Assembly: GCA_029879945.1 (NCBI GenBank) | Contig: JAOUPJ010000001.1 | Coordinates: 1-39,049, forward strand | DNA: 39,049 nt | Direction: 5' to 3' | Origin: Gammaproteobacteria bacterium | GTDB taxonomy: Bacteria; Pseudomonadota; Gammaproteobacteria; S012-40 | Shown here: piece by piece, positions 9,642-30,093 of the stretch | How positions within the stretch are numbered: the stretch's first letter is position 1 | Layout: each line of letters begins with the position of its first letter | The notes under the pieces: model-generated | Told to the model about the DNA's origin: nothing | Databases searched by the model: none | Seen by the model: the letters and a program-made list of their open reading frames with translations, nothing else | Translations under genes and position numbers: made by a program

Positions 9642-9755
9642 GGTGAGTGTCTCGTTATTTGTTTCAAGAAGAAGAGTGTTGCGCGTCACGTGCCAGTCTA
9701 CTCCAGAGGGGGAACGCAGGGCGATTTTACTCCTAAAATTTGCTAAGAGCATCTA

Positions 9756-9896: not shown

Positions 9897-9977
9897 ATAA
9901 AAAAATTTCGCTTGCTATTTTCCCCCTTTGGCTCAATGATTGCCGCCTAATTGGGTCGTCAAAAGGAGCCCCCTTAC

Positions 9978-12418: not shown

Positions 12419-14188
12419 CTACAACTGTCGTTGCAGCCAAAACTCCAGCAAGGCCATATGCCATAGCTTGCTGCCCTGGATTCGTGTATGGTGCTGCTCC
12501 GGTTCTTTTAACAAGAGGTCCACATAGTCTCGATTGTATAGACCCCGTTCTTTACATGCCTGCGAGTTAAGTATGTCACGCATGAAATCCAGAAACTCAC
12601 CTCGAACATATTTCAGGGCCGGCATGGGAAAATAGCCTTTTGGTCTATCAATGACACCGGCCGGTAAAAGCGGACGGGAAATCTCTTTCAAGATATGCTT
12701 TCCTTCCGAACCCAGTTTATATTCCTTGGGCATTTGCGCCGCCAGTTCCACCAACTCATGATCGAGAAAGGGAACGCGCGCCTCCAGGCCCCAGGCCATG
12801 GTCATATTGTCCACCCGTTTCACCGGATCGTCCACGATAAGATTACACACATCGGCACGAAAGACCTTGTCCATGAACTCGTCAGCATCTTTTTCATCAA
12901 ACCAGGACTGGACCAGTTCGCTGGTATAGTCTCCACTCATGTATTCAGAGGTGATCATGCGTGCATACTCTTCATGATCTCGATCAAAGTAGTTGGAAGC
13001 GAAGCGATCCAATTCACTGCCTTGTGCCTTATCCATGCGTGGATACCAGAAGTACCCGCCGAAGACCTCGTCCGCCCCCTGTCCACTCTGTACCACTTTG
13101 ACTTGCTTGGAGACTTGTTCCGATAACAAATAAAATGCAACCGCATCCTGACCAAACATGGGTTCCGACATGGCGTCCACCGCCTCGGGTAGACGGGTCA
13201 ATACCTGCGAGTTGGGGATATAGATCTTTTCGTGTCGCGTGTTGTAACGCGCCACCACCTGATCTGAGAATTCGAATTCACTACCCTGCTCTTGTCCTAT
13301 GTCCTCAAAGCCAATAGAAAAGGTGCGCAGGTCTTTTACACCCGCTTCCATGAGTAAGGCGACAAGCAGACTGGAATCCAGTCCACCTGAGAGCAAAACA
13401 CCTACCGGCACGTCTGCCACTTCGATACGCTTTTTCACTGCCGCCATCAGTGCACCGTGTATGGCCTCACGCCACTCTTGTTCGCTCTTCTTTTCCACGG
13501 GGCGTGTGGCTTTCAATCGCCAATACTTTTGAATCCATGTTTTACCATTAGATGAAATCATCATGGTATGGGCAGGCGGCAGTTTGCGCACACCCTTGAA
13601 AATTGTTCGCGGCGCGGGCACTACTCCGTGCAAAGTGAATTGATTGTGCAAGGCCTGGGTATCAATAGAAGTATCGATATCACCCATTTTCAGCAGCGCC
13701 TGCACATTGGAGGCAAAACGTATGCGCTTGTCGTCCAATGCATAATACATGGGCTTAATACCAAAGCGATCACGGGCCAGAAACACAGATTGTTGTTTTC
13801 TATCCCAGAGCGCAAAGGCAAACATGCCGGTAAGACGCTCTACGCATCCCAGCCCCCAATGGGCATAGGCCTTGAGTATTACTTCCGTATCACCGTGGGA
13901 GAAAAATTCGTAACCCAGATCGATCAACTGGGCGCGCAGTTCCCGGTAGTTATAAATGGCTCCGTTGAACACCAGGGCCAGTCCCAGCTTTTCATCTACC
14001 ATGGGTTGATTGGCCTGATCGCTCAGATCGATCACCGATAGACGTCTGTGCCCAAAGGCCAGCGGACCCTCCAGCCAATGGCCACCACTATCGGGCCCAC
14101 GCCGCTCCAGCGCGGTCATGGCGGAGAGGACATTTTTTAGTACTGGCTGAGTACCGTCAAAGCGGAATTCTCCAACGAGTCCACACAT
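12419..14188 (-). CDS. Asparagine synthase-family glutamine amidotransferase (589 aa), possibly AsnO / N-acetylglutaminylglutamine amidotransferase-like
   Basis: Starts MCGLVGEF (Cys2 nucleophile). PP-loop SGGLDSS. VDDPVKRVDNMTMAWGLEARVPFLD. GGAGG about 12 nt upstream. Confidence 0.88.
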   Translation of the reverse strand: MCGLVGEFRFDGTQPVLKNVLSAMTALERRGPDSGGHWLEGPLAFGHRRLSVIDLSDQANQPMVDEKLGLALVFNGAIYNYRELRAQLIDLGYEFFSHGDTEVILKAYAHWGLGCVERLTGMFAFALWDRKQQSVFLARDRFGIKPMYYALDDKRIRFASNVQALLKMGDIDTSIDTQALHNQFTLHGVVPAPRTIFKGVRKLPPAHTMMISSNGKTWIQKYWRLKATRPVEKKSEQEWREAIHGALMAAVKKRIEVADVPVGVLLSGGLDSSLLVALLMEAGVKDLRTFSIGFEDIGQEQGSEFEFSDQVVARYNTRHEKIYIPNSQVLTRLPEAVDAMSEPMFGQDAVAFYLLSEQVSKQVKVVQSGQGADEVFGGYFWYPRMDKAQGSELDRFASNYFDRDHEEYARMITSEYMSGDYTSELVQSWFDEKDADEFMDKVFRADVCNLIVDDPVKRVDNMTMAWGLEARVPFLDHELVELAAQMPKEYKLGSEGKHILKEISRPLLPAGVIDRPKGYFPMPALKYVRGEFLDFMRDILNSQACKERGLYNRDYVDLLLKEPEQHHTRIQGSKLWHMALLEFWLQRQL

Positions 14189-15655: not shown

Positions 15656-15685
15656 GCCGGGCCCTCACAAGGGCTCGGCCTTTTT
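15656..15685. terminator. Terminator between convergent genes
   Basis: Stem GCCGGGCCC (15656-15664) / GGGCTCGGC (15671-15679) with one G-T pair, loop TCACAA, then CTTTTT. Confidence 0.7.
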
Positions 15686-17220
15686 CAACTATTCTCCCCC
15701 CATCCCCCACCGCCGGGGGTTTCGATTGTTAACACATCACCCGCTTTCACTTTTAGATTCTGCTTGGTGCCCACATCTTTGCCGTTTAGTTTATTCACGC
15801 CCTTTTCACCTTCACCGCCGCCATTCATGCCCCAGGGTGATCGCTTGCGTCGTTCCGTTAACAGCGTGACTTGCGCGTCTTCTAAAAATTCATACTCTCG
15901 TATCAAGCCATCGCCACCACGGTGCAATCCTTTTCCACCTGAGCCCTTGCGAATCTCGTAGCGCGTCACACGTATGGGGTAATGGGATTCCAGCGATTCG
16001 ATGGGCGTGTTCAAGGTATTGGTCATATGGGTCTGTACAGCAGAAAGGCCGTCTCCCTTGCTATGCGCTCCCATGCCGCCACCGATGGTTTCGTAATAGT
16101 CCCAAGAATGAGCACCGCGCGATCCCATGGCCACATTGTTCATGGTGCCCTGACTGGCGGCGGCCATTTGTTCCGGTATGGCCTGGGCCAAGGCACCCAT
16201 GACTACGTCTACCACCCTCGAACTGGTTTCCACATTACCTGCCGCTACGGCAGCAGGTCTGCGTGCATTCAACAAGCAGCCTTCAGGGGCAGAGAGCGTG
16301 ATGGGCCGGAACGCACCCGCGCAGGCCGGGGTTTGATCCGGCATCAGGCAGCGAAACACATAAAACACAGCGGCCGCAGCCACCGATAAAGGGCAATTGA
16401 TATTGCCTGGGACTTGCGCAGCGGTGCCCGAAAAATCCAATCTAGCCTGTGTTCCGGAAATTTCCAGCTTCAGCTGTATCGGGATATCCGACTGGCCCAT
16501 GCCGTCGTCGTCCATATAGTCCGTATAGTGATAGACACCATCCGGGATCTGTTCAATCACAGACTCAGCCAGCCTTTGGGCGTAGTCATTCAATAAGGCG
16601 ATCGCCTTTATGAACCCGTCTTCCCCTCTTCCCGCTATCAGTTCCAATAGGCGCGACACCCCCACGCGGTTGGCGCTGACTTGCGCCGAGAAGTCTCCCC
16701 TCGCCTGGGCAGGATTACTGACCGCGTCTACCAGCGATTGGAAAAAGGCCTCGTCCAGCTTGCCGCGCTGGTAGAGGAAACTGGGCGGGATGATCTTGCC
16801 TTCCTCATCCAGGTGGGTAGACACGGGCATGGAACCGGGAGACTGGGCACCGATGTCCGCGTGATGGGCACGATTGGCAATAAAGGCGATGAGACGGGTC
16901 CCGACAAATACAGGAGAAATGACAGTCACGTCGGGCAGATGCGTTCCCCCCAGATAGGGGTCATTCAACACCAAGACATCATCACGACGCCATTCCACCT
17001 GGGACACGATGGATCGCATGGCATAGGCCATACTCCCCAAATGAACAGGAATGTGTGCAGCTTGTGCGACCAGCTCTCCCTGGGCATCGAACACAGCGCA
17101 GGAAAAGTCTAACCTGTCTTTGATATTGGGTGAAAAAGAGGTACGCGCCAGCACCGCTCCCATCTCTTCACAGACAGCAGCAATACGGTTGGAAAAAATA
17201 CTGAGTTCGATTACATCCAT
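15685..17220 (-). CDS. Hydantoinase B / oxoprolinase family protein
   Basis: Start chosen at ATG 17220 (MDVIELSIFSNRIAAVCEEMG, typical family N-terminus), giving 511 aa. The track ORF extends to 17277. Confidence 0.88.
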   Translation of the reverse strand: MDVIELSIFSNRIAAVCEEMGAVLARTSFSPNIKDRLDFSCAVFDAQGELVAQAAHIPVHLGSMAYAMRSIVSQVEWRRDDVLVLNDPYLGGTHLPDVTVISPVFVGTRLIAFIANRAHHADIGAQSPGSMPVSTHLDEEGKIIPPSFLYQRGKLDEAFFQSLVDAVSNPAQARGDFSAQVSANRVGVSRLLELIAGRGEDGFIKAIALLNDYAQRLAESVIEQIPDGVYHYTDYMDDDGMGQSDIPIQLKLEISGTQARLDFSGTAAQVPGNINCPLSVAAAAVFYVFRCLMPDQTPACAGAFRPITLSAPEGCLLNARRPAAVAAGNVETSSRVVDVVMGALAQAIPEQMAAASQGTMNNVAMGSRGAHSWDYYETIGGGMGAHSKGDGLSAVQTHMTNTLNTPIESLESHYPIRVTRYEIRKGSGGKGLHRGGDGLIREYEFLEDAQVTLLTERRKRSPWGMNGGGEGEKGVNKLNGKDVGTKQNLKVKAGDVLTIETPGGGGWGENS

Positions 17221-17467
17221 AGAGCTTCGCCGTTGAAAAGCACCCCGCGAGCTGTTAACGTGGCGGAATAAATACAAAGGGATGAGTGTAGCATATGCTT
17301 GATTCTCAACCCCTTAGAAACTAGATTAACCCCAACACTAACATGCTTGAATTCCTGACTAATTTTGTCATAGAATTCCGCCCTTCAGTGGAATGTGCGC
17401 CCGATTTCCGGTGACAGTGACAAGAATGGGAAGGTCTCTCGACACCGTTTTTATCCAGGAGAATTAA

Positions 17468-18197: not shown

Positions 18198-18224
18198 GCG
18201 GTCGTTACCGACGACCGCTTTTTT
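18198..18224 (+). terminator. Orphan strong intrinsic terminator 23 nt upstream of the argD start
   Basis: Perfect 8-bp stem GCGGTCGT (18198-18205) / ACGACCGC (18211-18218), loop TACCG, then TTTTTT. Confidence 0.75.
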
Positions 18225-18246
18225 GCTTTTGTTGGATAGTAAAACC

Positions 18247-19422
18247 ATGACAGACAGCATAATGAACACCTACAAATCTGATTCGGTGAGCTTTACCAAG
18301 GGTGAAGGCGTTTATCTGTGGGATAGTGAAGGAAATCGCTATCTGGATGCCATTAGCGGTATCGCCGTGTGCGCCCTGGGGCATGCCGATCCGGAAGTGG
18401 CCAAGGCGATTGCCGACCAGGCAAGCACGCTGATCCATACATCTAACCTTTATACCATTGATTTACAAAAGAAATTAGCGGATTCCCTAACCGAACTTGC
18501 GGGGATGGATCGTGCTTTCTTTGGTAACTCCGGGGCAGAAGCCAATGAAGCGGCCATCAAACTGGCCAGGCTATATGGCCACCACAAAGGGATCGTCGAT
18601 CCACTGATTGTAGTTACAGAACAGAGTTTTCATGGCCGTACCATGGCCACCCTCACTGCCACTGGAAACCGCAAAGTACAGGCAGGGTTTGAACCCCTGT
18701 TGCACGGCTTTGTGCGCGTGCCCTATAACGATTTGCCGGCCATTGAGAAACTGGTCCAGCACAGTAGAAACATAGTCGCCGTACTGGTGGAACCGATCCA
18801 AGGCGAAGGCGGCGTTCGTGTCCCCGACAGCGGGTACTTGAGTGGCCTTAGAACCCTATGCGACGAAAACGAGATGCTGTTGATGCTGGATGAGATCCAG
18901 ACGGGCATGTGTCGAACCGGACGTTGGTTCGCCTTTCAGCATGAAAATATTGTCCCCGATGTAATGACCCTGGCCAAAAGCCTGGGCAACGGCTTTCCCA
19001 TCGGCGCATGCCTGGCAAAGGGCAAAGCGGCTGAGGTCTTTAAACCAGGCAACCATGGATCCACCTATGGTGGAAACCCGCTGGCCTGTCGCACCGCGCT
19101 GACTGTGATTGAACAGATGAAGGCAAAATCGCTGGATAAGCAGGCCGCCCTCCTGGGCGAGCAACTGCTTGCCGAACTGAAAAGCCGACTGGGTTCGATA
19201 GGGGCGGTGGTAGAAATCAGAGGAAAGGGTTTGATGATTGGTATCGAGCTGGATAGACCCTGCGCCGAACTCGTCGCGGCCGCCAAGAAAAAGGGCCTAT
19301 TAATCAACGTTACCTCAGATAAGGTGGTACGTTTATTACCCCCCTTGATCATAGATGCCTCCCATATCAAAACCATCGTTTCCACATTGGGCGACCTGAT
19401 TCAGGAATTTGTCGAGGCCTAG
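18247..19422 (+). CDS. argD: Acetylornithine aminotransferase (class III PLP aminotransferase)
   Basis: GNSGAEANEAAIKLAR, LDEIQTGMCRTGRWFAFQH, LAKSLGNGFPIGA. Adjacent to argF. Start chosen at ATG 18247. Confidence 0.88.
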   Translation: MTDSIMNTYKSDSVSFTKGEGVYLWDSEGNRYLDAISGIAVCALGHADPEVAKAIADQASTLIHTSNLYTIDLQKKLADSLTELAGMDRAFFGNSGAEANEAAIKLARLYGHHKGIVDPLIVVTEQSFHGRTMATLTATGNRKVQAGFEPLLHGFVRVPYNDLPAIEKLVQHSRNIVAVLVEPIQGEGGVRVPDSGYLSGLRTLCDENEMLLMLDEIQTGMCRTGRWFAFQHENIVPDVMTLAKSLGNGFPIGACLAKGKAAEVFKPGNHGSTYGGNPLACRTALTVIEQMKAKSLDKQAALLGEQLLAELKSRLGSIGAVVEIRGKGLMIGIELDRPCAELVAAAKKKGLLINVTSDKVVRLLPPLIIDASHIKTIVSTLGDLIQEFVEA

Positions 19423-19425
19423 GAT

Positions 19426-20352
19426 ATGAGTACACCCAGACATTTTCTCAGTTTGCTCGATCTGTCCGGTGAAGAACTGGAGGCCATCATTGAGCGCGCC
19501 ATTGAACTCAAGGCGATGCACAAGCGTCAGGAGCCACACCAGACCTTGGCCGGTAAGGTCTTGGGTATGGTTTTCGAGAAATCGTCTACACGCACACGTG
19601 TTTCATTTGAGACGGGCATGATCCATCTCGGTGGCCAGGCACTCTTTCTTTCACCTCGAGATACCCAGTTGGGTCGAGGTGAACCGATAGAAGACTCGGC
19701 CCGAGTGCTTTCCAGCATGTTAGACGTGATCATGATACGCACCTTTGAACACGAAAAGCTGGAGACCTTCGCCAAGTATTCCAAAGTGCCGGTAATCAAT
19801 GCCCTCACCGATCTCTATCATCCCTGTCAGCTCCTGGCAGATATACAAACCTATGTGGAGCATCGTGGTTCCTTAAAAGGCAAAACCGTGGCGTGGATAG
19901 GCGATGGCAATAATATGTGTCACTCCTATATCAATGCCGCACGTCGCATTGGATTCACATTGAAGATTTCCACACCGGAAGGCTTTGAGCCCAATAGCCT
20001 AGTGAGCCGAGCGGCCGCTGATCATGTGGAAATAGTCGCTGGCCCTCTAGATGCCGCAAAAAACGCCGATCTGGTGGTGACAGATGTCTGGGCCAGTATG
20101 GGCCAGGAAAGCGAAGCGGAAGTGAGACACAAGGTTTTTAAAAATTTTCAGGTCAATCGGGAAGTCATGTCCATGGCCAAGCCGGACGCCCTGTTTATGC
20201 ATTGCCTACCCGCACATCGCGGTGAAGAAGTGACAGCGGACGTATTGGATGGCCCTCAATCCGTCGTGTGGGATGAGGCGGAAAACCGACTGCACTCGCA
20301 AAAAGCCCTGCTGGAGTTTCTCCTACTCGGTGGATTCGAAGCCAAGCACTAG
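19426..20352 (+). CDS. argF: Ornithine carbamoyltransferase
   Basis: 308 aa. [37 protein letters not shown]. Confidence 0.92.
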
Positions 20353-20354
20353 CA

Positions 20355-21398
20355 ATGTCTACCCTGCTGGAACTGAAAAATATTTCCTGCCGTTACGATC
20401 ATGCGGATGTGGTGCACAATTTTTCCCTACGTGTACGCAAAGGGGAAATTGCCTGCCTGTTGGGGCCCAGTGGATGCGGAAAAAGTACCATTCTTCGCGC
20501 CATTGCCGGCCTGGAACCCATCGTCGATGGGGTCATTACTCTCAATGACGTAATCATCTCCAGCCCCAGTCTGCACATGCCTCCGGAAAAGCGCGGCATC
20601 GGCATGGTGTTTCAGGAATATGCCTTGTTTCCTCATCTGGACGTGGAACGAAACATCTCGTTTGGCATGCGTTCCAAAAGTGCCAGCCATGCCGGCAAAG
20701 TGGCTGATTTGCTGGAAATAGTCGGCCTGCAAGGGTTTGGCAAGCGTTATCCCCACGAACTCTCCGGCGGCCAACAACAACGTGTGGCGCTGGCCCGTGC
20801 GCTGGCTGCAGAGCCCCAAATTATCCTTTTGGACGAGCCTTTTTCAAATCTGGATATTGAGCTTCGGGAAAAACTCAGTCTGGAAGTGAAAGACATTTTG
20901 TCTGAACAAAACATTACCGCAATACTCGTCACCCATGATCAAGCGGAGGCCTTCGCCGTTTCCGATGCCATCGCCGTAATCCATGAAGGAAAGCTGCAAC
21001 AATGGGACTCGGCCTATAATCTTTACCATGATCCCGTTAATCGCTTCGTCGCCGACTTTATCGGACAAGGCGTCTTTCTAAAAGGTGAGCTGGTGTCACC
21101 GGATGCCGTCAAGACCGAACTGGGTACGCTGCGAGGTGACAGGGCCTACACGGGTGGTGTGGGCTCATTTGTGGACGTGTTAATCAGGCCTGACGATATT
21201 TTACCGGACGAACAAAGCCCCCTGCGCGTCACCGTTACCCAAAAGGCCTTTCGTGGCTCCGACATTCTCTACACCTTAAAGATGAAATCCGGCACCCCTT
21301 TACTGGCCAGCTTTCCCAGCCACTACAATCACTATGTGGGGGAAGAGATCGGTATAAATCCGGATATTCAACATTTGATCGCCTTCGACGAGCAATAG
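20355..21398 (+). CDS. ABC transporter ATP-binding protein (PotA/FbpC-like), with no adjacent permease or binding protein
   Basis: Walker A GPSGCGKST, signature LSGGQQQRVALARAL, Walker B ILLDEP, plus a C-terminal TOBE-like extension. Confidence 0.9.
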   Translation: MSTLLELKNISCRYDHADVVHNFSLRVRKGEIACLLGPSGCGKSTILRAIAGLEPIVDGVITLNDVIISSPSLHMPPEKRGIGMVFQEYALFPHLDVERNISFGMRSKSASHAGKVADLLEIVGLQGFGKRYPHELSGGQQQRVALARALAAEPQIILLDEPFSNLDIELREKLSLEVKDILSEQNITAILVTHDQAEAFAVSDAIAVIHEGKLQQWDSAYNLYHDPVNRFVADFIGQGVFLKGELVSPDAVKTELGTLRGDRAYTGGVGSFVDVLIRPDDILPDEQSPLRVTVTQKAFRGSDILYTLKMKSGTPLLASFPSHYNHYVGEEIGINPDIQHLIAFDEQ

Positions 21399-21545
21399 TC
21401 TCAGTGTTTTGGCCATTTCTGGCCACATTTCCATCTACCAAAATTCAAGCAGACACCCCCTCACCTTGTTTAAAGGCTTCCGGGCATATGTTATGCTGAC
21501 AATTAGTTTTGTATAAAACTATTAGTCACAAACCTATTTAGCCTC

Positions 21546-22007
21546 ATGGATGAGAGACCCCGGACACGGAACTCGTTGAAAACCTGTCAAAAAAATATTC
21601 TTTTCCTTTCCCTCCTGCTCCCATCGTACCTATGGGCCAGCGTGCCTGTTTTGAATGGGCCCCATGAAACGGTGAATGCGGGTTACTTTCAACTCAACTG
21701 GGAGGGGGAAGGGGAGCGCTTTGAACTGCAAGAACAAGGTGGTGAAACACAGGCCGGGACACGAACGCTTTACACCGGCCCGGACACCGCCAGCGCCATC
21801 AGCGGTCGGGCAGACGGCAGCTATCGATTCCGTGTAAGACAAATCAATGCGCAAGGTCAGGCCCTATCGCCCTGGAGCCAGGCGCTGACTGTGGACGTGG
21901 TTCATCACAGTTTAGCGAAGGCCTTTGGCTTCTTTCTACTTGGGTTTTTGGTCTTCATCAGCACTGTCGCCATAGTCTTAGCTGGCACCCGTCACGTTTC
22001 ACGTTAG
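21546..22007 (+). CDS. Hypothetical membrane-anchored protein (N-terminal signal/anchor, FN3-like middle, C-terminal TM helix)
   Basis: 153 aa. ILFLSLLLPSYLWA and FGFFLLGFLVFISTVAIVLAG. Lies 9 nt upstream of the next gene. Confidence 0.5.
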   Translation: MDERPRTRNSLKTCQKNILFLSLLLPSYLWASVPVLNGPHETVNAGYFQLNWEGEGERFELQEQGGETQAGTRTLYTGPDTASAISGRADGSYRFRVRQINAQGQALSPWSQALTVDVVHHSLAKAFGFFLLGFLVFISTVAIVLAGTRHVSR

Positions 22008-22016
22008 GAGATCCGG

Positions 22017-23246
22017 GTGCTGAAAATCAATTCATCACGTCTGCGCCATGATATAACCGAACTCTCGAATATTGGGAGAGAAGCCGATCAAGGCCTGTAC
22101 CGCTTGGCCTTCAGTGATCAAGACATGATGGCCCGAAAATGGTTGGCCAATCGCATCCAGGAAGCTGGCTTAGCGCTATACATGGATGGTGCCGCGAACA
22201 TACATGGGCGCCTTAATTGGGATGGCAAGACTCCCAGTGTGATGACAGGCTCCCATATCGATACCATTCCCGGTGCCGGTCATCTGGACGGCGCGCTGGG
22301 TGTCATCGCCGGTTTGGAATGTCTGCGAATACTCAAGGAATCGGGCCTCGCGCTTAAACATCCACTGGAAGTGCTTGCCTTTTCCGATGAAGAGGGCCGT
22401 TTCGGGGGAATGTTCGGTTCGCAGGCCATCGCAGGGCAACTCAGCCCACAGAAAATCCACCAGGCTATCGATCCGGAAGGCATCAACATCAGCACAGCGA
22501 TGCAGGCACAGGGGCTCAACGCCATGGACGCACTCAATGCGTATCGCTCCCCGGAAGGCATCAAGGCCTTCGTCGAACTCCATATTGAACAAGGGCCCAT
22601 ACTCGATAAACAAGGTGCCAGCATCGGTGTGGTGGAAGGCATCAATGGATTGTTCAAGTGGCTGGTGCGGCTAAAAGGCAATGCCAATCACGCGGGAAGC
22701 ACACCCATGAATATGCGACAGGATGCCTTTCAGGGTCTGGTTGAGGTGGCTACCCAAATCGAACGTTTGCTGGAGGAGAATGGCAGCCCTCGTAGTGTCG
22801 CGACTATCGGTCATGTTGAACTAGCACCAGGTGCCGCCAATGTGATTCCCGGTCTGGCCGAATTCACCCTGGAAGTGCGCGATTTAGATGAACAAGTCCT
22901 GGAGACCCTCGCCGATGCCTTTCGCCGTAGCATTTCTGCCATTGCTCGGCGACGAAATCTGATGTTCGAATTTGAGGTGCTCAGCCAAATCACGCCCGTA
23001 AAATGCGATAGCGCCATACAGGAACACGTTAAAAAGTCGGCACAGGAACTCGGCATAGACTGCATTAGCCTGCCCAGTGGGGCCGCGCATGATACTCAGA
23101 TCATGGCAAAGATCACAGCAGCGGGGATGATCTTCGTTCCCAGCAAAGACGGTCGCAGCCATTCACCGGCTGAATGGACGGCATGGGAGGACATTGAACA
23201 CGGTGCCAATGTCTTATTAAACACTCTCTTAAAACTGGCGCAATAA
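22017..23246 (+). CDS. M20-family amidase of the hydantoinase/carbamoylase type (allantoate amidohydrolase / N-carbamoyl-L-amino-acid hydrolase-like)
   Basis: 409 aa, GTG start. GSHIDTIPGAGHLDGALGV, AFSDEEGRFG, NHAGSTPM, SGAAHDT. Confidence 0.85.
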   Translation: MLKINSSRLRHDITELSNIGREADQGLYRLAFSDQDMMARKWLANRIQEAGLALYMDGAANIHGRLNWDGKTPSVMTGSHIDTIPGAGHLDGALGVIAGLECLRILKESGLALKHPLEVLAFSDEEGRFGGMFGSQAIAGQLSPQKIHQAIDPEGINISTAMQAQGLNAMDALNAYRSPEGIKAFVELHIEQGPILDKQGASIGVVEGINGLFKWLVRLKGNANHAGSTPMNMRQDAFQGLVEVATQIERLLEENGSPRSVATIGHVELAPGAANVIPGLAEFTLEVRDLDEQVLETLADAFRRSISAIARRRNLMFEFEVLSQITPVKCDSAIQEHVKKSAQELGIDCISLPSGAAHDTQIMAKITAAGMIFVPSKDGRSHSPAEWTAWEDIEHGANVLLNTLLKLAQ

Positions 23247-23247
23247 T

Positions 23248-23973
23248 ATGACTGAGCAAGAAGACGAATTCCTCCATATCGACCCCCTCGAAGAGGCCTA
23301 TCGTGAATCCATCGCAGAAATTCCACAAGTCACGGAGTCGCTAGAGAAACACAAAACGGCACTGCTGGTGATCGATCTTCAATATCTGGATGCGGCACGC
23401 GGTTGTGGCGTGTTTGCCGATCTGGAAAATAGCCCTGTGCCCACCGAAGCACAGGAATACTATTTTAATCGACTTGATGAGTCGGTGTTTCCCAATGTGA
23501 GAAGACTGCAAGACTGTTTTCGTGAACACAGTCTGGAAGTGATTCATACACGTATCCAGTCCCTGACAAAAGACGGACGCGATCGTGGGCCGGGCCATAA
23601 ACGTCTCGGTCTGCATGCCGCCCCCGGTTCAAAAGAGGCCGAGTTTATAGAATCGGTGGCACCGATAGGTGACGAGATCGTCATTAACAAAACCGCCAGC
23701 GGCGTGTTCAACTCCACCAATATCGAATACATCCTGCGCAACATGGGCATCACCGGGCTTTTTATTGTGGGGGTCTATTCCAATGAATGTGTATCTACCG
23801 CCGTGCGGGATGCCTGCGACCGCGGGTTCTATGTCACGGTGATTGAAGATGCCATTGCCACCGTGACGCCTGAGCTACAAAACGCCACTGTCACCACACT
23901 CAAAGACCGTTACGCCCGTGTCATGACTACTGTAGAAGCCCTGCAGGAAATCAATCGAGTGGTAGAAGATTGA
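23248..23973 (+). CDS. Isochorismatase-family cysteine hydrolase
   Basis: 241 aa. TALLVIDLQ, KTASGVFNST, GVYSNECVSTAVRDA (nucleophile Cys). Confidence 0.85.
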   Translation: MTEQEDEFLHIDPLEEAYRESIAEIPQVTESLEKHKTALLVIDLQYLDAARGCGVFADLENSPVPTEAQEYYFNRLDESVFPNVRRLQDCFREHSLEVIHTRIQSLTKDGRDRGPGHKRLGLHAAPGSKEAEFIESVAPIGDEIVINKTASGVFNSTNIEYILRNMGITGLFIVGVYSNECVSTAVRDACDRGFYVTVIEDAIATVTPELQNATVTTLKDRYARVMTTVEALQEINRVVED

Positions 23974-25403
23974 AGGCAGAGAACACCGCCATACTCGACC
24001 CCGTTACCGGTTGGCTGATACTGGCGCTGTTCTCCGCGCTGTGGATTTTTCTGGGTTGGTTATGGGGTAGACGTGCCAAGCAGCTCGACGAATTCATGCT
24101 GGCGGGACGAAACGTGGGCCTCTCACTGGCCGTCGCCACGGCGATGGCAACCTGGGTCACCAGTAACACCACCATGGCCGCCCCGCAATTGGCCTTACAA
24201 CTGGGGATCTGGGGCATGGTGGGCTATTCACTGGGTGCCATAGGCTTGTTTATGTTTGCGCCCCTGGCCAAACGGATTCGTGAACTCATGCCGCATGGCT
24301 ACACCAGCGGCGACTTTATTCGTTTGCGTTTTGGCAAGACCACCTGGCGCATCTTTCTGATGATCTCCCTGTTTTATGCCTTTGGCTGGCTAATCAGTCT
24401 GGGCATGGCGGGTGGCGTTTTAATAAATGCCCTTACCGGCATTCCCTACACCTATGGCATGAGTGTGATTCTGTTCATCTGTGTGTTGTATACCCTGCTC
24501 GGTGGTTTGCGCGCGGTAATCGGCACCGATTTTGTCCAAACCATTATTATCGTGTGCGGTGTCATCATTCTCGCCTACCTGGCCATCGACAAAGTGGGCT
24601 TTGAGGCCATCCATGCGGGAGTACAAAAAGAACGGCCTGAACTACTCAATCTGCTCATGCCCGCAGCGATCATGTTTCTGTTTAACAATTTACTGTTCGG
24701 CGTGGGTGAAATTTTTCACTCCAATGTGTGGTGGAGTCGAGCCTTCGCCTTTCGCAGCGGCGTTGGATTCAAGGCCTACACCATCGCCGGGGTGATGTGG
24801 TTACCCATTCCCATTGTGGCGGGATTTATCGCCCTTGCCGCGCCCGCCTTGGGCCTGAATGTGCCTGCGGCTGATATGGTGGGTCCGCTGGTCGCAGCCA
24901 AGCTGCTTGGTTTTACAGGGGCCGTTTTGATTTTTATCGTCGTCTTTTCCGCCCTGGCCTCCAGCCTGGACTCGCTGCTGGCCGCCACGGGCGATCTCAT
25001 CACGCAGGATATTTACCGCCAACACCTACGCCCCCATGCCGATGAAAAAGAATTGCGCAAAGCGGCCATGGTGATAATCAGCCTGCTGGGTGTGGTGACC
25101 TGGCTATTGTGTTTGCCGCGTCTAACCACGCTGGCAGAACTTCTCTACTTCACGGGTGCCTTTGTGGCCTCCACCATTTGGCCCATTGTTGCAGGTTTGT
25201 ATTGGCAACGCGCGAATCGTAAAGGCGCGGCATTGGCCATGCTGCTGGGCACTTGCGTCGGCCTCTATACCTATTTTGCCATCGGCTTTTATGTCGCCGC
25301 ACTGGTAGGGGCAGCCGTGTCCATGCTGATTGTTGTTATTAGCACATTGATCTGGCCCCAGTCTTTTGACTGGCAAACACTGCGAAACGAGGACCCACTA
25401 TGA
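23970..25403 (+). CDS. Sodium:solute symporter (SSS) family transporter
   Basis: 477 aa and polytopic. FMLAGRNVGLSLAVATAMATWVTSNT. The TTG start overlaps the upstream stop (TTGA). Confidence 0.88.
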   Translation: MKAENTAILDPVTGWLILALFSALWIFLGWLWGRRAKQLDEFMLAGRNVGLSLAVATAMATWVTSNTTMAAPQLALQLGIWGMVGYSLGAIGLFMFAPLAKRIRELMPHGYTSGDFIRLRFGKTTWRIFLMISLFYAFGWLISLGMAGGVLINALTGIPYTYGMSVILFICVLYTLLGGLRAVIGTDFVQTIIIVCGVIILAYLAIDKVGFEAIHAGVQKERPELLNLLMPAAIMFLFNNLLFGVGEIFHSNVWWSRAFAFRSGVGFKAYTIAGVMWLPIPIVAGFIALAAPALGLNVPAADMVGPLVAAKLLGFTGAVLIFIVVFSALASSLDSLLAATGDLITQDIYRQHLRPHADEKELRKAAMVIISLLGVVTWLLCLPRLTTLAELLYFTGAFVASTIWPIVAGLYWQRANRKGAALAMLLGTCVGLYTYFAIGFYVAALVGAAVSMLIVVISTLIWPQSFDWQTLRNEDPL

Positions 25404-25522
25404 TCGCTTCCGCAACGTTCTTGGCCATCCTGGTCACCCTGGCGCTGATACTCAGTATCGTTACGCCCGTTTTATTATTCACATTTTTTATTCGAGACTT
25501 GAAACAAGGTACGCTATGGTAA
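25400..25522 (+). CDS. 40-aa single-TM small protein, translationally coupled on both sides
   Basis: Below the track length cutoff. MIASATFLAILVTLALILSIVTPVLLFTFFIRDLKQGTLW. Its ATG overlaps the symporter stop (ATGA, 25400-25403). Its stop overlaps the next ATG (ATGGTAA, 25516-25522). Confidence 0.55.
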   Translation: MIASATFLAILVTLALILSIVTPVLLFTFFIRDLKQGTLW

Positions 25523-26571
25523 GCCCACTCAACCCGATACTCGAAGAGGCGCTCCCGGAAAAGGACGAGACCGCCGGAATTGAGAAGCCACTCCGTCTAC
25601 TCAAGCATGTCCCCGAAGACCCAGCGGCCCTGCTTGATTTGGCCAATCATTCCATCGTTTCGTCGCGTCAGTTCACCTCTGAGCATGTCAAACAATTGAT
25701 TCGCCTCGCGGCCAAACACGAGGCCGTACCGCAACAGGCCCGTCGTCCACTGGTGGGAAAAATTCTAATCAGTGCCTTTTACGAACCCAGCACGCGCACG
25801 CGGCTCTCTTTCGAAAGTGCCTGGCATCGCTTGGGCGGCGACATCATGTCGATTACCGATCCCGCAACCACCGGGATTGCCAAGGGCGAATCATTTTCCG
25901 ATGTGGGTGAGATGTTGAATAATTATGGCGATCTGGTTGTGTTACGTGAAACGAATCATCAAGCCATCTACAGAATGATGGAAGGCCTGCGTATTCCCAT
26001 TGTGAATGCCGGTAATGGCACCGACGAGCATCCCACCCAGGCGCTGGCCGATATGTATGCCATTTTCAAATGGCGTCTTGAGCTGATGGATAAAGACATC
26101 GCAGAGAACAAAAAGGTACGCATTGGCATTGTCGGCCTGCCTTCAACCATGCGCACTGTACGTAGTCTGCTTTATCTACTGGCCTTGTTTCCGCAAAGTT
26201 TCAAGGAAGTCGTCATTATTTGTAACGAGGAAGAGGTCTTCTCAGAAAGTCAAAAAGAAAATCTGGAAGAAATGGGGCTAATACTGCGTGTCAGTAACGA
26301 TCTTAAAAAAGAGCTGCCCAAACTCGATATCGTATACATCAACTCCATTGCCTGGATCGGCGATGACTATAAAGAATTTGGTCAGGAGTTCGCGCTATCA
26401 AAAAGTTCGCCTTTAAAAAAGGGTGCCATCATCATGCACCCTCTGGCACGAGGACGTGAGCTCTCTACCGACCTGGACGACACGCCACATAATTGGTACT
26501 TCGCTCAAGCAAGAGGTGCAGTCTTTATTCGCATGGCTCTCTTGACGTGTCTCGTGCAGCACAATTGGTAA
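25516..26571 (+). CDS. Aspartate carbamoyltransferase-like transcarbamylase paralogue with an altered second-substrate site
   Basis: Start at ATG 25516 (AAGG upstream), 351 aa. STRTRLSFE, HPTQALAD, MRTVRSL and HPLARGRELSTDLDDTPHNWYF align to E. coli PyrB. The TRVQKER motif is replaced by NSIAWIG. Confidence 0.85.
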   Translation: MVSPLNPILEEALPEKDETAGIEKPLRLLKHVPEDPAALLDLANHSIVSSRQFTSEHVKQLIRLAAKHEAVPQQARRPLVGKILISAFYEPSTRTRLSFESAWHRLGGDIMSITDPATTGIAKGESFSDVGEMLNNYGDLVVLRETNHQAIYRMMEGLRIPIVNAGNGTDEHPTQALADMYAIFKWRLELMDKDIAENKKVRIGIVGLPSTMRTVRSLLYLLALFPQSFKEVVIICNEEEVFSESQKENLEEMGLILRVSNDLKKELPKLDIVYINSIAWIGDDYKEFGQEFALSKSSPLKKGAIIMHPLARGRELSTDLDDTPHNWYFAQARGAVFIRMALLTCLVQHNW

Positions 26572-26695
26572 TGACTGTGTCGCAAGATTCGTCCTCAAAC
26601 GAAAAACAGTCACCCATCCACTGATCGAGTCGGTGGAAGTTTTAATGCGTTCCCGGTGCAAGGAGGACGCACTCAATACTACAAAGAGGTTTTTT

Positions 26696-28744
26696 ATGTG
26701 CGGTATAGCGGGCGTTTTGAACGTCGATCCACAGTTTTCCGTTGATCCCCAACTTCTGGTCAACATGGCGGCTATCCAATACCACCGTGGTCCCGATGGA
26801 TTTGGCTACCGTACCCTAGACGATCGCGGAATCGGTTTCGCCCATGCGCGTCTGTCCATTATTGATCTGGACGAGAATCGGGGCCGCCAACCTTTCGTCT
26901 CTCAGGACCAGCAGCTCCTGCTCACCCACAATGGTGAGTTCTATGACTACAAACGACTCCGCGCCGACCTTAGTTCACGCGGCGAACGTTTTAGCAGTAA
27001 GAGTGATTCGGAAATAGTGCTGCATTTGTACCCACGCCTTGGTCTCGAAGACATGCTTCCTTATTTGCGTGGTGAATTCGCCTTTGCCTTATATGATAAA
27101 AGAAAAGACAAGCTGATCCTGGTACGGGACCGCTTTGGTATCAAGCCTCTGTACTGGACCCAGGTCAACGGTAGCTTTGTTTTTGGTTCCGAAATAAAGG
27201 TTCTGTTTGCTCATCCCAAGGTGCCGCGAAAAATCAGCGACACGGGCCTATACCACCAACTCATGCAAACCATTGCGCCCGGCACAACCCCTTTCGAAAA
27301 CATTCACCAGGTCGCACCCGGGCATGCACTCATCGTTGAACGCGTCCATGGAAAATTTAGAATCACAAGCCAAAAATATTGGGACATGGATTTTCCACTG
27401 CACTCGGAAAGAAAAGAGAAAGAAGACCAATACTATATAGAAGGCGTGCGCGAAAAACTGCTGGAGGCCGTACAACACCGACTGGAAGCCGATGTACCCG
27501 TGGCCTGCTACTTATCCGGCGGTATCGATTCCTGCTCCATACTGGGGCTATCCTCCGCCTCACAACAGTCTCCGGTGAAGGCATTCACCATCGGTTTTGA
27601 CGATGCCGATTATGACGAGACCGCTATTGCGAAAGAAATGGCTGCCGCCACCGGGGCAGACCAGGACATCATGATGCTTAACGCCAGGCATTTATACGAC
27701 AATTTTGCGCGCACCATCTGGCATACAGAACGCTCCATCTACAACACACTGGGCGTGGCCAAACTATTGATGAGTCAACATGTGAACCGGGCGGGATATC
27801 GTGTGGTCGTTACCGGCGAGGGCTCAGACGAATTGTTCTCAGGCTACCCCTCTTTCAGACGTGACATGTTCCTCTACGGTATGGACCATCTCAATGCCAG
27901 TGAGCGCGTCGCCTGGGAACAGATGCTGGCGGAAAGCAACAAACTATTCAAGGGTGCCATGCTCGCCGAAGAAGCCTGGGCCGATCCATTTCTGGATAAG
28001 ACACTGGGCTTCACCCCCAGTTGTCTGCAGCCCTGGCTCGCCAGCAGTCAACATGTCCTGGGTATCGTCGACGCAGGTCGTGCTAAAAACCTGAAAGACT
28101 ACCAAGCCGGCCAGGCCATCGCCGATGCGCTGGATGTAGATATGCTTGCCGAACGTCACCCCCTGGACAAGGCCCAGTACGTGTGGATCAAAACTCAATT
28201 GGAAGGACAGATTCTCACTTGGGGAGGGGATCGTGTGGACATGGCCAATTCCATGGAGGCCCGTCCTGCCTTTCTGGATCACCACCTGGCCGAGTTCGCT
28301 ACACAACTGCCCCCGAGCATGCGCATACGGGGTCGCGTTGAAAAATTCGTATTGCGCGAGGCCATGAAGGGTCTGCTGCCTACGGTTTTGTACGAACGGG
28401 AAAAATTCGCCTTCATGGCTCCCCCCGCCCACACCGATCCTGAAAAATGGCAAGCCATGAAAGGTCTGGCTGATCGATATCTCTCTCCGGCCGCTATCAA
28501 CGATGCGGGCTTGCTCAGCGAGAATGGGGTGAATGCGCTATTCGCCCTGCACGAAAACCCGAACACATCCGCCGCCACTCAGGTACAATTGGATGCAGTT
28601 ATCAATCACATGCTCAGCGTTCAAATGATGCATGAAAAATTTATTGCTGCAGACCTGCCTAGACTGGCTCAAGAGCAAGCAGTAAAACTGGGCTGGAGCG
28701 TTACATCGGTCCCCGAAAATGAAAGAGATTATTCAAGACACTAG
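26696..28744 (+). CDS. Asparagine synthase (glutamine-hydrolysing) family amidotransferase, 682 aa
   Basis: AAGAGG RBS, then MCGIAGVL (the Cys2 nucleophile fixes the start). PP-loop YLSGGIDSCS. The track ORF starts 63 nt further upstream. Confidence 0.9.
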   Translation: MCGIAGVLNVDPQFSVDPQLLVNMAAIQYHRGPDGFGYRTLDDRGIGFAHARLSIIDLDENRGRQPFVSQDQQLLLTHNGEFYDYKRLRADLSSRGERFSSKSDSEIVLHLYPRLGLEDMLPYLRGEFAFALYDKRKDKLILVRDRFGIKPLYWTQVNGSFVFGSEIKVLFAHPKVPRKISDTGLYHQLMQTIAPGTTPFENIHQVAPGHALIVERVHGKFRITSQKYWDMDFPLHSERKEKEDQYYIEGVREKLLEAVQHRLEADVPVACYLSGGIDSCSILGLSSASQQSPVKAFTIGFDDADYDETAIAKEMAAATGADQDIMMLNARHLYDNFARTIWHTERSIYNTLGVAKLLMSQHVNRAGYRVVVTGEGSDELFSGYPSFRRDMFLYGMDHLNASERVAWEQMLAESNKLFKGAMLAEEAWADPFLDKTLGFTPSCLQPWLASSQHVLGIVDAGRAKNLKDYQAGQAIADALDVDMLAERHPLDKAQYVWIKTQLEGQILTWGGDRVDMANSMEARPAFLDHHLAEFATQLPPSMRIRGRVEKFVLREAMKGLLPTVLYEREKFAFMAPPAHTDPEKWQAMKGLADRYLSPAAINDAGLLSENGVNALFALHENPNTSAATQVQLDAVINHMLSVQMMHEKFIAADLPRLAQEQAVKLGWSVTSVPENERDYSRH

Positions 28745-29240
28745 CGCCACACTGGTTAAAAAGGGCGCCACAAAAAGCGAAAGGGATGAGCTGGCCAAAG
28801 CGGTGCTACAAAACCTGCGCGTAGTGGTGCGCACCACTCAAGCCCATTCACGCTGGATAGAAAAGAGTTCGGGCATCACAGGTGCCCAACTGTGGGCCCT
28901 GTGGGAGCTATTCGCGCAGCCGGGGCAAAAGGTGTCAGACTTGTCCCGTGCCCTGTCCATACATCAATCCACCGCCAGCAATATGCTGGATAAGCTCGAG
29001 GAACGAGGACTGATTCGTCGTGATCGCAGCGGGCCCGACCAGCGGGTCGTTCAATTATTTCTCACCCGTGAAGGCACCGATCTGCTTTCAGATGCACCAC
29101 GCCCGGCTCAGGGTGCCATTATGGACGCGCTGAAGTCCATGTCTAACGGAGACCTGCTCAATCTGAATCAGGGTCTCAACAGTTTGCTCGACCATATGCA
29201 AGTGTGGGAAAAAAATGCAGCCTTGAACCCCTTGAGCTAG
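28719..29240 (+). CDS. MarR-family transcriptional regulator
   Basis: 173 aa. Winged HTH (GITGAQLWALWELFAQPGQKVSDLSRALSIHQSTASNMLDKLEERGLIRRDR). Overlaps the asnB-like 3' end by 26 nt. Confidence 0.85.
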   Translation: MKEIIQDTSATLVKKGATKSERDELAKAVLQNLRVVVRTTQAHSRWIEKSSGITGAQLWALWELFAQPGQKVSDLSRALSIHQSTASNMLDKLEERGLIRRDRSGPDQRVVQLFLTREGTDLLSDAPRPAQGAIMDALKSMSNGDLLNLNQGLNSLLDHMQVWEKNAALNPLS

Positions 29241-29259
29241 ATTTTTTCGGCAACAAAAA

Positions 29260-29283
29260 AAGGCGGACCATCAGGCCCGCCTT
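29260..29283. terminator. Terminator between the convergent marR-like and cytochrome c4 genes
   Basis: AAGGCGG (29260-29266) pairs with CCGCCTT (29277-29283). The A-run on the plus side gives a T-run for the minus-strand transcript. Confidence 0.65.
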
Positions 29284-29305
29284 CTCTTCCGAAATACTCT
29301 AATCC

Positions 29306-29935
29306 TTAGAGACTTGAGAGGTATTCAGATACTGCTTCGATTTCTGCATCGGACAGGCGCTTTGCAATATCGCCCATCATGCCAGCTGGGTCATTCTTAC
29401 GCTCGCCAGAGCGGAAGGTGGTGAGCTGGGCAACAAGATAATCTTTATTTTGACCACCAATTACAGGAAAGACCTGGTTAGAACCAGACTTGCCCTTGCC
29501 ATTCTTACCGTGGCAATTCACACAGCCATAAAGACCGGTTTTGGGATTGCCGGAAGCAAAAATAGTCTCACCCTGTTTGAGAAGCTTACCGTCAGATCCG
29601 GGGATCATCGCAGTCATAGACTTCTGAGTGGAGAAGTAAGCTGCGATATCTTTGAGATCCTGGTTGCTGGCAACAGTCAACGCCATTGGAGACATGGTGT
29701 CGTTGTAGCGGTGATTGTTTTTGAAATCAGTCACTTGCTTGAAGATGTAGCCAGGCTTTTGACCGGCAAGATTAGGAAAATTCGGCGCAATTGATTGACC
29801 ATTTTCACCGTGGCAACCATGGCAAAGCGCTGATTTTACTGCACCTTCTTTCGGGTCTCCACCCGCTGCAAATGCCCCCCCTGAAGCTGCAACGATAGCA
29901 GCCAGGCCTAGAATGAAAGACATTTTTCTTATCAT
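29306..29935 (-). CDS. Dihaem cytochrome c4
   Basis: Start chosen at ATG 29935 (MIRKMSFILGLAAIVAASGGAFA signal), 209 aa. Two CxxCH motifs (CHGCH, CVNCH). The track ORF extends to 30061. Confidence 0.9.
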   Translation of the reverse strand: MIRKMSFILGLAAIVAASGGAFAAGGDPKEGAVKSALCHGCHGENGQSIAPNFPNLAGQKPGYIFKQVTDFKNNHRYNDTMSPMALTVASNQDLKDIAAYFSTQKSMTAMIPGSDGKLLKQGETIFASGNPKTGLYGCVNCHGKNGKGKSGSNQVFPVIGGQNKDYLVAQLTTFRSGERKNDPAGMMGDIAKRLSDAEIEAVSEYLSSL

Positions 29936-30010
29936 ATTCAACCCTTTAGATTCCTTTAACCTAGATCGAGTTACAAACAGACTCGTCATCAAAAAACTTT
30001 TGAAGTCTGT

Positions 30011-30038
30011 ATTGTAATATCGTGGCCGGGGATGTAAA
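30011..30038 (-). promoter_or_regulatory. Possible sigma-70 promoter for cytochrome c4
   Basis: Minus strand reads TTTACA (30038-30033), 16-nt spacer, TACAAT (30016-30011). Confidence 0.4.
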
Positions 30039-30093
30039 GCCCAAAGCAAAAGAAATGTCACGAATCAGAGACAATTCTGCTCATTTTTTCACA

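Follow-up and report, generated by a model that had tools for sequence, protein, structure and literature searches.

An eight-gene operon combines a transcarbamylase with an AsnB-type amidotransferase

We analyzed a 39,049-nucleotide stretch of DNA (hereafter, the window) from a Gammaproteobacteria bacterium (GenBank assembly GCA_029879945.1, contig JAOUPJ010000001.1, positions 1 to 39,049 of the forward strand), with regard to a compact operon in which a transcarbamylase and an amidotransferase of the asparagine synthase (AsnB) family are accompanied by two hydrolases, a transporter and a regulator. A preliminary description of this DNA had reported a tight operon of seven genes between 22017 and 29240, joined by a 1-nt gap or by short overlaps, and this was borne out by open reading frame (ORF) calls and by Pfam and NCBIfam searches: all seven ORFs were confirmed on the + strand at the same coordinates, and the family names agreed. 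While the seven genes are real, the count fell one short, because a 153-aa ORF that had been missed heads the operon; the operating unit therefore comprises eight genes and extends over 21546–29240 on the + strand.

The first of these genes, sp153 (21546–22007, +), encodes a 153-aa membrane protein and its stop codon lies 9 nt ahead of the start of the gene for an M20 enzyme of the N-carbamoyl-L-amino-acid amidohydrolase type (22017–23246, +; TIGR01879, NF006771, structure 3n5f). A gap of 1 nt (23246/23248) separates the latter from the gene for an isochorismatase-family cysteine hydrolase (23248–23973, +; PF00857), which overlaps by 4 nt (23970–23973) with that of a sodium:solute symporter of the SSS family (23970–25403, +; PF00474). 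The stop codon of SSS and the start codon of pep40, which encodes a hydrophobic peptide of 40 aa (25400–25522, +), share an ATGA overlap of 4 nt (25400–25403), and pep40 in turn overlaps by 7 nt with the gene for a transcarbamylase of the aspartate transcarbamylase (ATCase) branch, referred to here as ATC (25516–26571, +; PF02729 and PF00185). After a spacer of 124 nt (26572–26695, +) follows the gene for the 682-aa AsnB-family amidotransferase (26696–28744, +; GATase_6/7 and Asn_synthase domains), for which the start was taken as MCGIAG at 26696, the longest ORF opening at 26633. The last gene encodes a MarR-family regulator (28719–29240, +; PF01047) and overlaps the AsnB-like gene by 26 nt, across the AsnB stop codon.

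Within the ATC-AsnB spacer, which also contains the AsnB ribosome-binding region, a 9-bp hairpin (26617–26637) with a short run rich in T behind it may act as an attenuator or a processing site. The length of this spacer is not conserved (median of 66 nt and interquartile range of 42–127 nt across 251 loci), and no riboswitch or known RNA was detected with Rfam, at gathering thresholds, in the operon or in the spacer. A second hairpin (29255–29288; 15-nt arms, 80% complementarity), located in the interval between the MarR gene and a convergent cytochrome c gene (29306–30061, −), is likely the end of the operon.

The transcarbamylase and the amidotransferase form an invariant core

Conservation of the cluster was assessed through three scans. 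A protein-guided scan of one genome per species yielded 80 loci, a DNA pattern derived from the motif HPLARxxE-10 residues-NWYF added at least 120 further loci, and a scan seeded with the orthologue from Ectothiorhodospira lacustris showed that a relative of the transcarbamylase is encoded in at least 511 species genomes (one genome per species) belonging to several phyla. Comparison of the window proteins with the fetched loci by tblastn resulted in 231 distinct loci, and the partner counts given below rest on the 90 of them with at least 5.5 kb of upstream and at least 3.6 kb of downstream flank.

In 88 of these 90 loci, the AsnB-like gene was found directly downstream of ATC and co-oriented with it, an arrangement that is far beyond chance. 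The gene order is thus conserved outside this strain, one of the two points on which the preliminary description had made its reading depend. The SSS gene was present in 75 loci, directly upstream of ATC, M20 in 62 and the isochorismatase-like gene in 59, sp153 stood at the head of the cluster in 58, and a MarR gene was found in 33. One of the only two exceptions to ATC-AsnB adjacency was Thiorhodospira sibirica ATCC 700588 (L212, 7995–9080), whose ATC-like gene stands alone among the housekeeping-type neighbors patatin-like, lipid A acyltransferase and sucA, with no AsnB-like gene within 8 kb; in this species, a 2020 genome survey found no annotated osmolyte genes (PMC7824335).

The cluster is hence built from an invariant core, the transcarbamylase and the amidotransferase, around which a hydrolase module and a transporter module (sp153, SSS and pep40) are arranged. 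The composition of the hydrolase module differs among hosts, with M20 occurring with or without the isochorismatase-like gene, and M20 varies in both position and orientation: it follows AsnB in Prochlorococcus, Synechococcus and Aliikangiella, and in Leptospiraceae it is placed between ATC and AsnB. Hydrolase genes are missing at many loci, for example in Idiomarina, and the SSS importer is missing from the Ectothiorhodospira clusters.

Marine, saline and soda-lake organisms make up the overwhelming majority of the hosts, among which are Thioalkalivibrio, Thiohalophilus, Thiohalobacter, Ectothiorhodospira, Idiomarina/Pseudidiomarina, Pseudoalteromonas, Kangiella, Nitrosomonas halophila, Candidatus Thiodiazotropha, Leptospiraceae, Prochlorococcus and marine Synechococcus. 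Some are apparently non-saline, such as a Methylomonas metagenome-assembled genome (MAG; L029), and the cluster is also found in relatives named Kaarinaea lacus. The window itself matches metagenome contigs from estuarine sediment, and its nearest genome relative (L001) is a gammaproteobacterial MAG with the isolate label 8_1_Jan_SF_Bin103, suggesting San Francisco Bay. Among the picocyanobacteria, Prochlorococcus genomes of low guanine + cytosine (GC) content (e.g., L085, 1559–6747, with a GC fraction of 0.34) carry ATC-AsnB-M20 followed by a DUF1028 protein that replaces the isochorismatase-like hydrolase, and Synechococcus MIT S1220 (L152) shows the order SSS-ATC-AsnB-M20. The GC content of these genes is that of their hosts, which suggests that they have long been resident.

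ATC has lost the aspartate signature of PyrB

The carbamoyl-phosphate site is kept in ATC, as FYEPSTRTR (residues 88–96), the arginine of VLR (R105 equivalent) and HPTQ (172–175), and so are both residues for the alpha-carboxylate of the second substrate (the K84 equivalent in AKGE and the R167 equivalent in MRTVRS). These elements, together with the two-domain fold family, are shared with PyrB. Other features set the two proteins apart. The 240s loop is treated as a determinant of second-substrate specificity, and its RxQxER motif binds the beta-carboxylate of aspartate (PMC4581275). In ATC, the sequence of this loop is YINSIAWIGD; other residues stand in place of R229 and Q231 in 81/81 aligned family members, with a family pattern Y-I-N-x-I-A-W in which N, I and W are invariant. 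A second determinant of transcarbamylase specificity is the residue that follows His in the HxLP motif (PMC4581275), and ATC has HPLAR in place of HPLP/HPGP, the extended motif HPLARxxE-10 residues-NWYF being present in all 81 sequences. Furthermore, ATC has an N-terminal extension of approximately 45 residues and an insertion in the C-domain, and it lacks a pyr context, since it never adjoins pyrC or pyrI.

Databases label this gene as aspartate carbamoyltransferase, its best family models are PyrB, and its best sequence and structure matches are ATCases (e.g., 6yw9 and 1d09), all of which would speak for the pyrimidine aspartate transcarbamylase of the organism. That explanation is effectively refuted. 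ATC scores below the PyrB equivalog cut-offs (193.1 vs 263 for NF002032; 192.9 vs 236.95 for TIGR00670), and it is not PyrB because the RxQxER motif is absent and a canonical pyrB coexists in the same genomes: in locus L245, the contig of the cluster also carries a canonical pyrB-pyrC' pair (LRLQRER), 3 kb further upstream, and, with the PyrB of L245 as a query, a canonical pyrB was found in the assemblies of L001, L041 and L131. The claim of the preliminary description that the ATCase-like protein does not serve pyrimidine biosynthesis is consequently upheld, and ATC is not the only candidate for pyrB in these genomes.

Other transcarbamylase families were rejected as well. Signatures described for this superfamily are RxQxER for ATCase, DxxxSMG for OTCase, H(T/S)LP for UGTCase and HDLP for DPTCase/DBTCase (PMC4581275). 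ATC contains neither DxxxSMG nor HCLP and scores 111 vs 306 with NF001986, which dismisses an ornithine transcarbamylase; its HPLA, instead of H(T/S)LP or HDLP, dismisses UGTCase and DPTCase/DBTCase, and the models for YgeW and PTCase are far below cut-off. Like UGTCase, DPTCase/DBTCase, PTCase and YgeW, ATC appears to be a specialized, non-canonical transcarbamylase, but its context is neither purine catabolism nor non-ribosomal peptide synthesis.

Retention of the alpha-carboxylate residues along with loss of the beta-carboxylate site would fit an L-alpha-amino acid with a neutral and longer side chain as the second substrate, and we propose that ATC may be an L-glutamine N-alpha-carbamoyltransferase. 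A 2015 review proposed the engineering of a transcarbamylase for carbamylglutamate and lists no natural enzyme of this kind (PMC4581275).

A true argF gene is also present in the window (19426–20352; 467.6 vs a cut-off of 306), so that two transcarbamylase genes lie 5 kb apart. It belongs to the genes directly upstream of the operon (18223–21398, +), namely argD, argF and a PotA/PhnT-like ABC ATPase, the adjacent ORFs including no permease.

The AsnB-like protein is predicted to amidate a carboxylate

The AsnB-like protein passes the TIGR01536 model (423 vs 267). In 209/209 distinct homologs it starts with MCGI[AGS]G, so that the N-terminal Cys is kept, and the PP-loop SGG[IV]DS is conserved in 198/209. 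Conservation of both elements points to a glutamine-hydrolyzing, ATP-dependent carboxylate amidotransferase rather than to a ring-closing enzyme, and we propose N-carbamoyl-L-glutamine as its possible substrate, the 1-carboxyl group of which would be amidated.

AsnB homologs in beta-lactam pathways form intramolecular amides, and these ring-closing homologs are not known to carry the N-terminal Cys nucleophile. Ring closure in the manner of beta-lactam synthetase or carbapenam synthetase, which would lead to a hydantoin or a related heterocycle as a specialized metabolite, was weighed for the AsnB-like protein, given that an N-carbamoyl amino-acid adenylate is chemically poised to cyclize and that the nearest solved structure, the hydroxyamidotransferase 7ylz, is a natural-product enzyme. 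Against it stand the N-terminal Cys in every homolog, the lack of other tailoring or export genes in the cluster, and the distribution described above: spread over at least 511 species genomes of several phyla, together with the host-like low GC content of the Prochlorococcus copy, points to a resident core-metabolic gene and not to a mobile natural-product cluster. We therefore regard ring closure as highly improbable.

The closest mechanistic precedent is N-acetylglutaminylglutamine amide (NAGGN), in the synthesis of which the carboxylate of an N-blocked (N-acylated) glutamine derivative is converted to an amide by an enzyme of the AsnB type. The AsnB-like protein of the operon was rejected as the NAGGN amidotransferase itself (TIGR03104, 294.1 vs 570.1). 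A second AsnB paralog, encoded 8 kb upstream (12419–14188, −), is a NAGGN amidotransferase equivalog (TIGR03104, 961.7 vs 570), beside which lies a divergent pair of genes (8493–9752, −, and 9951–11462, +) encoding GNAT plus DUF3335/C39-like peptidase and RLAN plus RimK ATP-grasp domains, respectively. No match to an Ngg model was obtained among the window ORFs scanned against NCBIfam, neighbors of this paralog included; the paralog and the divergent pair may constitute a split or variant NAGGN-type system, and this region may be an osmoadaptation neighborhood.

As in the NAGGN system (AsnO and Ngg), the product proposed for the operon would be a glutamine-derived osmolyte in which the alpha-amine is blocked and the terminal carboxylate is amidated by an AsnB-family enzyme; a hydrolase is likewise part of the Pseudomonas NAGGN cluster. 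The two differ in that the amine-blocking enzyme of the operon is a carbamoyl-phosphate-dependent transcarbamylase and not a GNAT/ATP-grasp Ngg, and in that the operon further encodes an M20 carbamoylase, a cysteine hydrolase and, next to the SSS importer, two small membrane proteins. By analogy, we propose a NAGGN-like solute route that would be built on a transcarbamylase.

The hydrolases are compatible with turnover of an N-carbamoyl compound

M20 scored above the cut-offs of TIGR01879 (403.2 vs 204) and NF006771 (537 vs 399). It remained below those of the N-carbamyl-L-glutamate amidohydrolase ErtE (398.6 vs 520; third-ranked NCBIfam model) and of the allantoate deiminase AllC (292.3 vs 597.75). 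The nearest solved structure was the N-carbamoyl-L-amino acid hydrolase 3n5f (307 bits; best of 18 matches), compared with 243 bits for ureidoglycolate hydrolase and 204 for allantoate amidohydrolase. The L-carbamoylase family acts on N-carbamoyl-L-amino acids bearing a free alpha-carboxylate, and we propose M20 as a putative decarbamoylase in solute turnover. It shares the hydantoinase/carbamoylase amidase family with the L-carbamoylases of hydantoin and ergothioneine systems (3n5f and ErtE), from which it differs in that the operon contains neither hydantoinase nor ergothioneine genes and in that M20 is paired with biosynthetic genes.

The isochorismatase-like protein (PF00857, 106 bits) possesses a D43-K148-C181 triad that is conserved in 87/90 homologs. 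Its nearest structures, all at 58 bits or less, are the cysteine hydrolases 6xix/6xj4, the biuret hydrolase 6xjm and the N-carbamoylsarcosine amidase 1nba, and its best NCBIfam models were far below cut-off (71.6 vs 370 for BiuH; 56.1 vs 378 for RutB). Hence, it has in common with biuret/triuret hydrolases, N-carbamoylsarcosine amidase and RutB the D-K-C triad and neighbors that act on ureido or amide nitrogen, but it is distant from them and below every equivalog cut-off. An amidase acting on a carboxamide or ureido group is proposed as its probable role. Overall, the affinities of ATC, M20 and the isochorismatase-like protein are in line with the N-carbamoyl or ureido chemistry put forward in the preliminary description.

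That description had left the direction of the pathway between uptake and conversion of a ureido compound and synthesis of one. In a catabolic scheme, SSS would import an external ureido compound for the hydrolases and ATC to break down, the latter through phosphorolysis that yields carbamoyl phosphate; an importer, an M20 carbamoylase and a ureido-amide-type hydrolase are all present, and catabolic transcarbamylases exist (PMC4581275). However, ATC is invariably partnered by an amidotransferase that consumes ATP and has kept its glutaminase site intact, and a degradation pathway has no use for such an enzyme; moreover, neither the hydrolases nor the importer are constant members of the cluster, as exemplified by Idiomarina and Ectothiorhodospira, respectively. 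No carbamate kinase turned up among the window genes examined, in scans that were not aimed at this enzyme. Taken together, a degradative role appears improbable. Synthesis is favored over uptake and conversion because the invariant core consists of a transcarbamylase and an ATP-dependent, glutamine-hydrolyzing amidotransferase, while the hydrolases are accessory and mobile.

A hydantoinase B/oxoprolinase-type subunit is encoded 5 kb from the operon (15685–17277, −; PF02538, 672 bits), and an A-subunit partner for it was not found among the window ORFs scanned.

SSS co-occurs with two small membrane proteins

The SSS protein scored well below the cut-offs of the PanF and PutP models, and its proposed role is that of a putative uptake or recapture transporter. 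No Pfam or NCBIfam match was obtained for sp153, for which a single-sequence AlphaFold2 model, with a low-to-moderate predicted local distance difference test (pLDDT) value of 63, shows a helix (residues 7–31), six strands forming a beta-sandwich (47–117) and a second helix (123–152). With regard to pep40, gene calling identified it on two independent metagenome contigs and tblastn recovered it between SSS and ATC in many distant genomes, from which we conclude that this small ORF is a real gene.

Both small proteins follow the symporter. All 58 loci with sp153 also carry SSS, pep40 was found by tblastn only at loci carrying SSS, and both are absent from SSS-less clusters, such as all those of Ectothiorhodospira. 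Because sp153 and pep40 occur only where SSS is present, their distribution suggests a three-component SSS transporter, with sp153 as a candidate accessory subunit and pep40, translationally coupled to SSS and ATC, as a candidate small subunit. The strict pairing of SSS with two small membrane proteins represents a separate lead on transporter architecture.

Regulation and transcription of the operon

The intergenic region of 147 nt that precedes sp153 holds an inverted repeat, TGACAATTAGTTTT-gtat-AAAACTATTAGTCA (21497–21528, +; 14-nt arms, 86% complementarity), which ends 18 nt upstream of sp153. Looser AT-rich palindromes were observed upstream of sp153 in the related loci L002, L006, L029, L103 and L137, and those of L002, L006 and L103 have a TTGT(A/G)CAA center in common. 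We consider the palindrome of the window a candidate MarR operator, to which the regulator is predicted to bind. The position of the MarR gene varies: it precedes the cluster in Thioalkalivibrio and Ectothiorhodospira and follows it in the lineage of the window. In a sigma-70 promoter scan, sites were no more frequent than in shuffled sequence, and none was found upstream of sp153.

Transcription was monitored at the Thioalkalivibrio versutus locus, which is present in four RNA runs. In each run, one contig of 7.8–8.7 kb spans all or nearly all of the cluster from MarR to AsnB, with AsnB split over two contigs in one of the four, and transcription continues through the equivalent of the ATC-AsnB spacer. 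A single RNA contig from MarR to AsnB supports co-transcription, DNA carry-over being possible. In T. versutus AL2, the gene that directly follows the AsnB-like gene, in convergent orientation, is glnA (L239, 11386–12828, −). Expression of glnA was reported to be 8-fold higher at 3.0 M than at 0.4 M Na+ in T. versutus D301 (PMC9062515), and the contig depth of glnA in the four runs was about 2,300–2,750 in two and about 40,000 in the other two (approximately 15-fold). Because this pattern matches the published rise, the runs probably split into low (0.4 M) and high (3.0 M Na+) salt. Contig depths of the operon were 872 and 636 in one pair of runs and 670 and 601 in the other, values to be read with the caution that contig depth is a crude measure of expression and that the assignment of the runs to the D301 study (PMC9062515) was deduced by us.

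Other features of the window

Two further observations concern regions outside the operon. At 4176–7677 (−), the gene for a 730-aa caspase-like (Peptidase_C14) protein is closely packed with those for an ECF sigma factor and for a 268-aa protein of unassigned family. A methyltransferase gene (11459–12178, −) matches the RquA model (rhodoquinone biosynthesis) with 173.8 bits, just below the cut-off of 175.

A proposed pathway for carbamoyl-glutamine-amide

The features described above converge on a product class: the operon probably makes an N-carbamoyl amino-acid amide. To our knowledge, carbamoyl-glutamine-amide (CGA), reportedly first known as a compatible solute in 1991, is the only known natural product with exactly this N-carbamoyl plus 1-amide pattern. 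We propose that the operon could serve the synthesis, turnover, uptake and regulation of CGA as a solute, an assignment that we judge to be evenly poised.

In this pathway, ATC would carbamoylate L-glutamine at its alpha-amino group, with carbamoyl phosphate as the donor. Carbamoylation would precede amidation, because the alpha-carboxylate site is retained in ATC. Subsequently, the AsnB-like enzyme would adenylate the alpha-carboxylate of N-carbamoyl-L-glutamine and amidate it with ammonia released by its own glutaminase domain, yielding CGA. For breakdown or adjustment of the pool, the isochorismatase-like cysteine hydrolase may take off an amide group, after which the M20 L-carbamoylase would decarbamoylate the resulting N-carbamoyl-L-amino acid to glutamine, CO2 and NH3. 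SSS, with sp153 and pep40, would import or recapture the solute, and MarR might repress the operon through the palindrome upstream of sp153.

CGA has been attributed to Ectothiorhodospira marismortui as a compatible solute (PMC1224877) and is counted among the solutes of purple sulfur bacteria (PMC7824335). The genome of the E. marismortui type strain, DSM 4180, is available under accession FOUO (PMC8877833). This strain carries an intact MarR-M20-Isoc-ATC-AsnB cluster with uninterrupted ORFs (L211, NZ_FOUO01000006). We take it to be the strain originally studied for CGA. In the scan seeded with the E. lacustris orthologue, eight further Ectothiorhodospira genomes with the cluster were found; cluster-bearing species are E. 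mobilis, E. marina, E. haloalkaliphila, E. shaposhnikovii, E. magna and E. lacustris. In a genome survey of 2020 by Imhoff, CGA was merely suggested as a possible solute where betaine and ectoine genes are missing (PMC7824335). In the literature searched, we found no paper naming CGA genes (under several spellings), no mention of a glutamine or glutamate transcarbamylase and no description of this gene combination, in agreement with the preliminary description, which had not recognized the combination as a described pathway.

Several points weigh against CGA as the product. Firstly, no salt induction of the operon was apparent in the four T. versutus RNA runs, as judged from Logan contig depth, the ratio normalized to a flanking contig being approximately 1.2; the glycine-betaine genes of T. 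versutus D301 are likewise not salt-induced (PMC9062515). Secondly, the sequence, from which the product was deduced, does not reveal which side chain (Gln, Asn, Glu or another) the substrate bears. Furthermore, translational coupling of an importer to the biosynthetic pair would be unusual for a purely biosynthetic operon, a solute with four nitrogen atoms (N4) would be costly for nitrogen-poor Prochlorococcus, and genes for synthesis and hydrolysis in one transcript entail a risk of futile cycling unless there is post-translational control. Lastly, the reported solute of Thioalkalivibrio is said to be glycine betaine and not CGA, and the reports of CGA known to us are confined to E. marismortui, yet the cluster is present in every Ectothiorhodospira genome that was found. 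Other osmolyte systems are known to be controlled post-translationally by ionic strength, and a putative control of this kind could, by analogy, reconcile several of these points.

Some of the same observations would be accommodated if the chemistry were as proposed and the product another one, that is, a different N-carbamoyl amino-acid amide derived, for example, from asparagine, glutamate or a non-protein amino acid, which would function in nitrogen storage, in signaling or as a minor protectant rather than as a salt-regulated osmolyte. The illegible side chain and the rough RNA depths without salt induction agree with this alternative, as does the presence of the cluster in apparently non-saline MAGs (the Methylomonas locus L029), in Kaarinaea lacus relatives and in Prochlorococcus. 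It is countered by the presence of the cluster in the known CGA producer E. marismortui, by the match of the predicted product pattern to CGA and by the strong bias of the hosts towards saline habitats, and we consider it rather unlikely.

With CGA as the product, the cluster would represent a previously unassigned pathway present in hundreds of species, in which a new transcarbamylase specificity and a dedicated AsnB paralog make CGA, accompanied by recycling enzymes and a three-part Na+/solute importer; this complete picture is put forward tentatively, at somewhat less than even confidence. If true, it would close the orphan CGA pathway, add a new substrate specificity to the transcarbamylase family and correct the annotations "aspartate carbamoyltransferase" and "asparagine synthase" of a family encoded in at least 511 species genomes. 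CGA, or a close analog, would then be a nitrogen-rich solute that is common in marine and soda-lake bacteria, some Prochlorococcus and Synechococcus included, but has been overlooked, and the cluster would provide a genetic marker for such a solute in marine, estuarine and soda-lake communities, those of picocyanobacteria among them.

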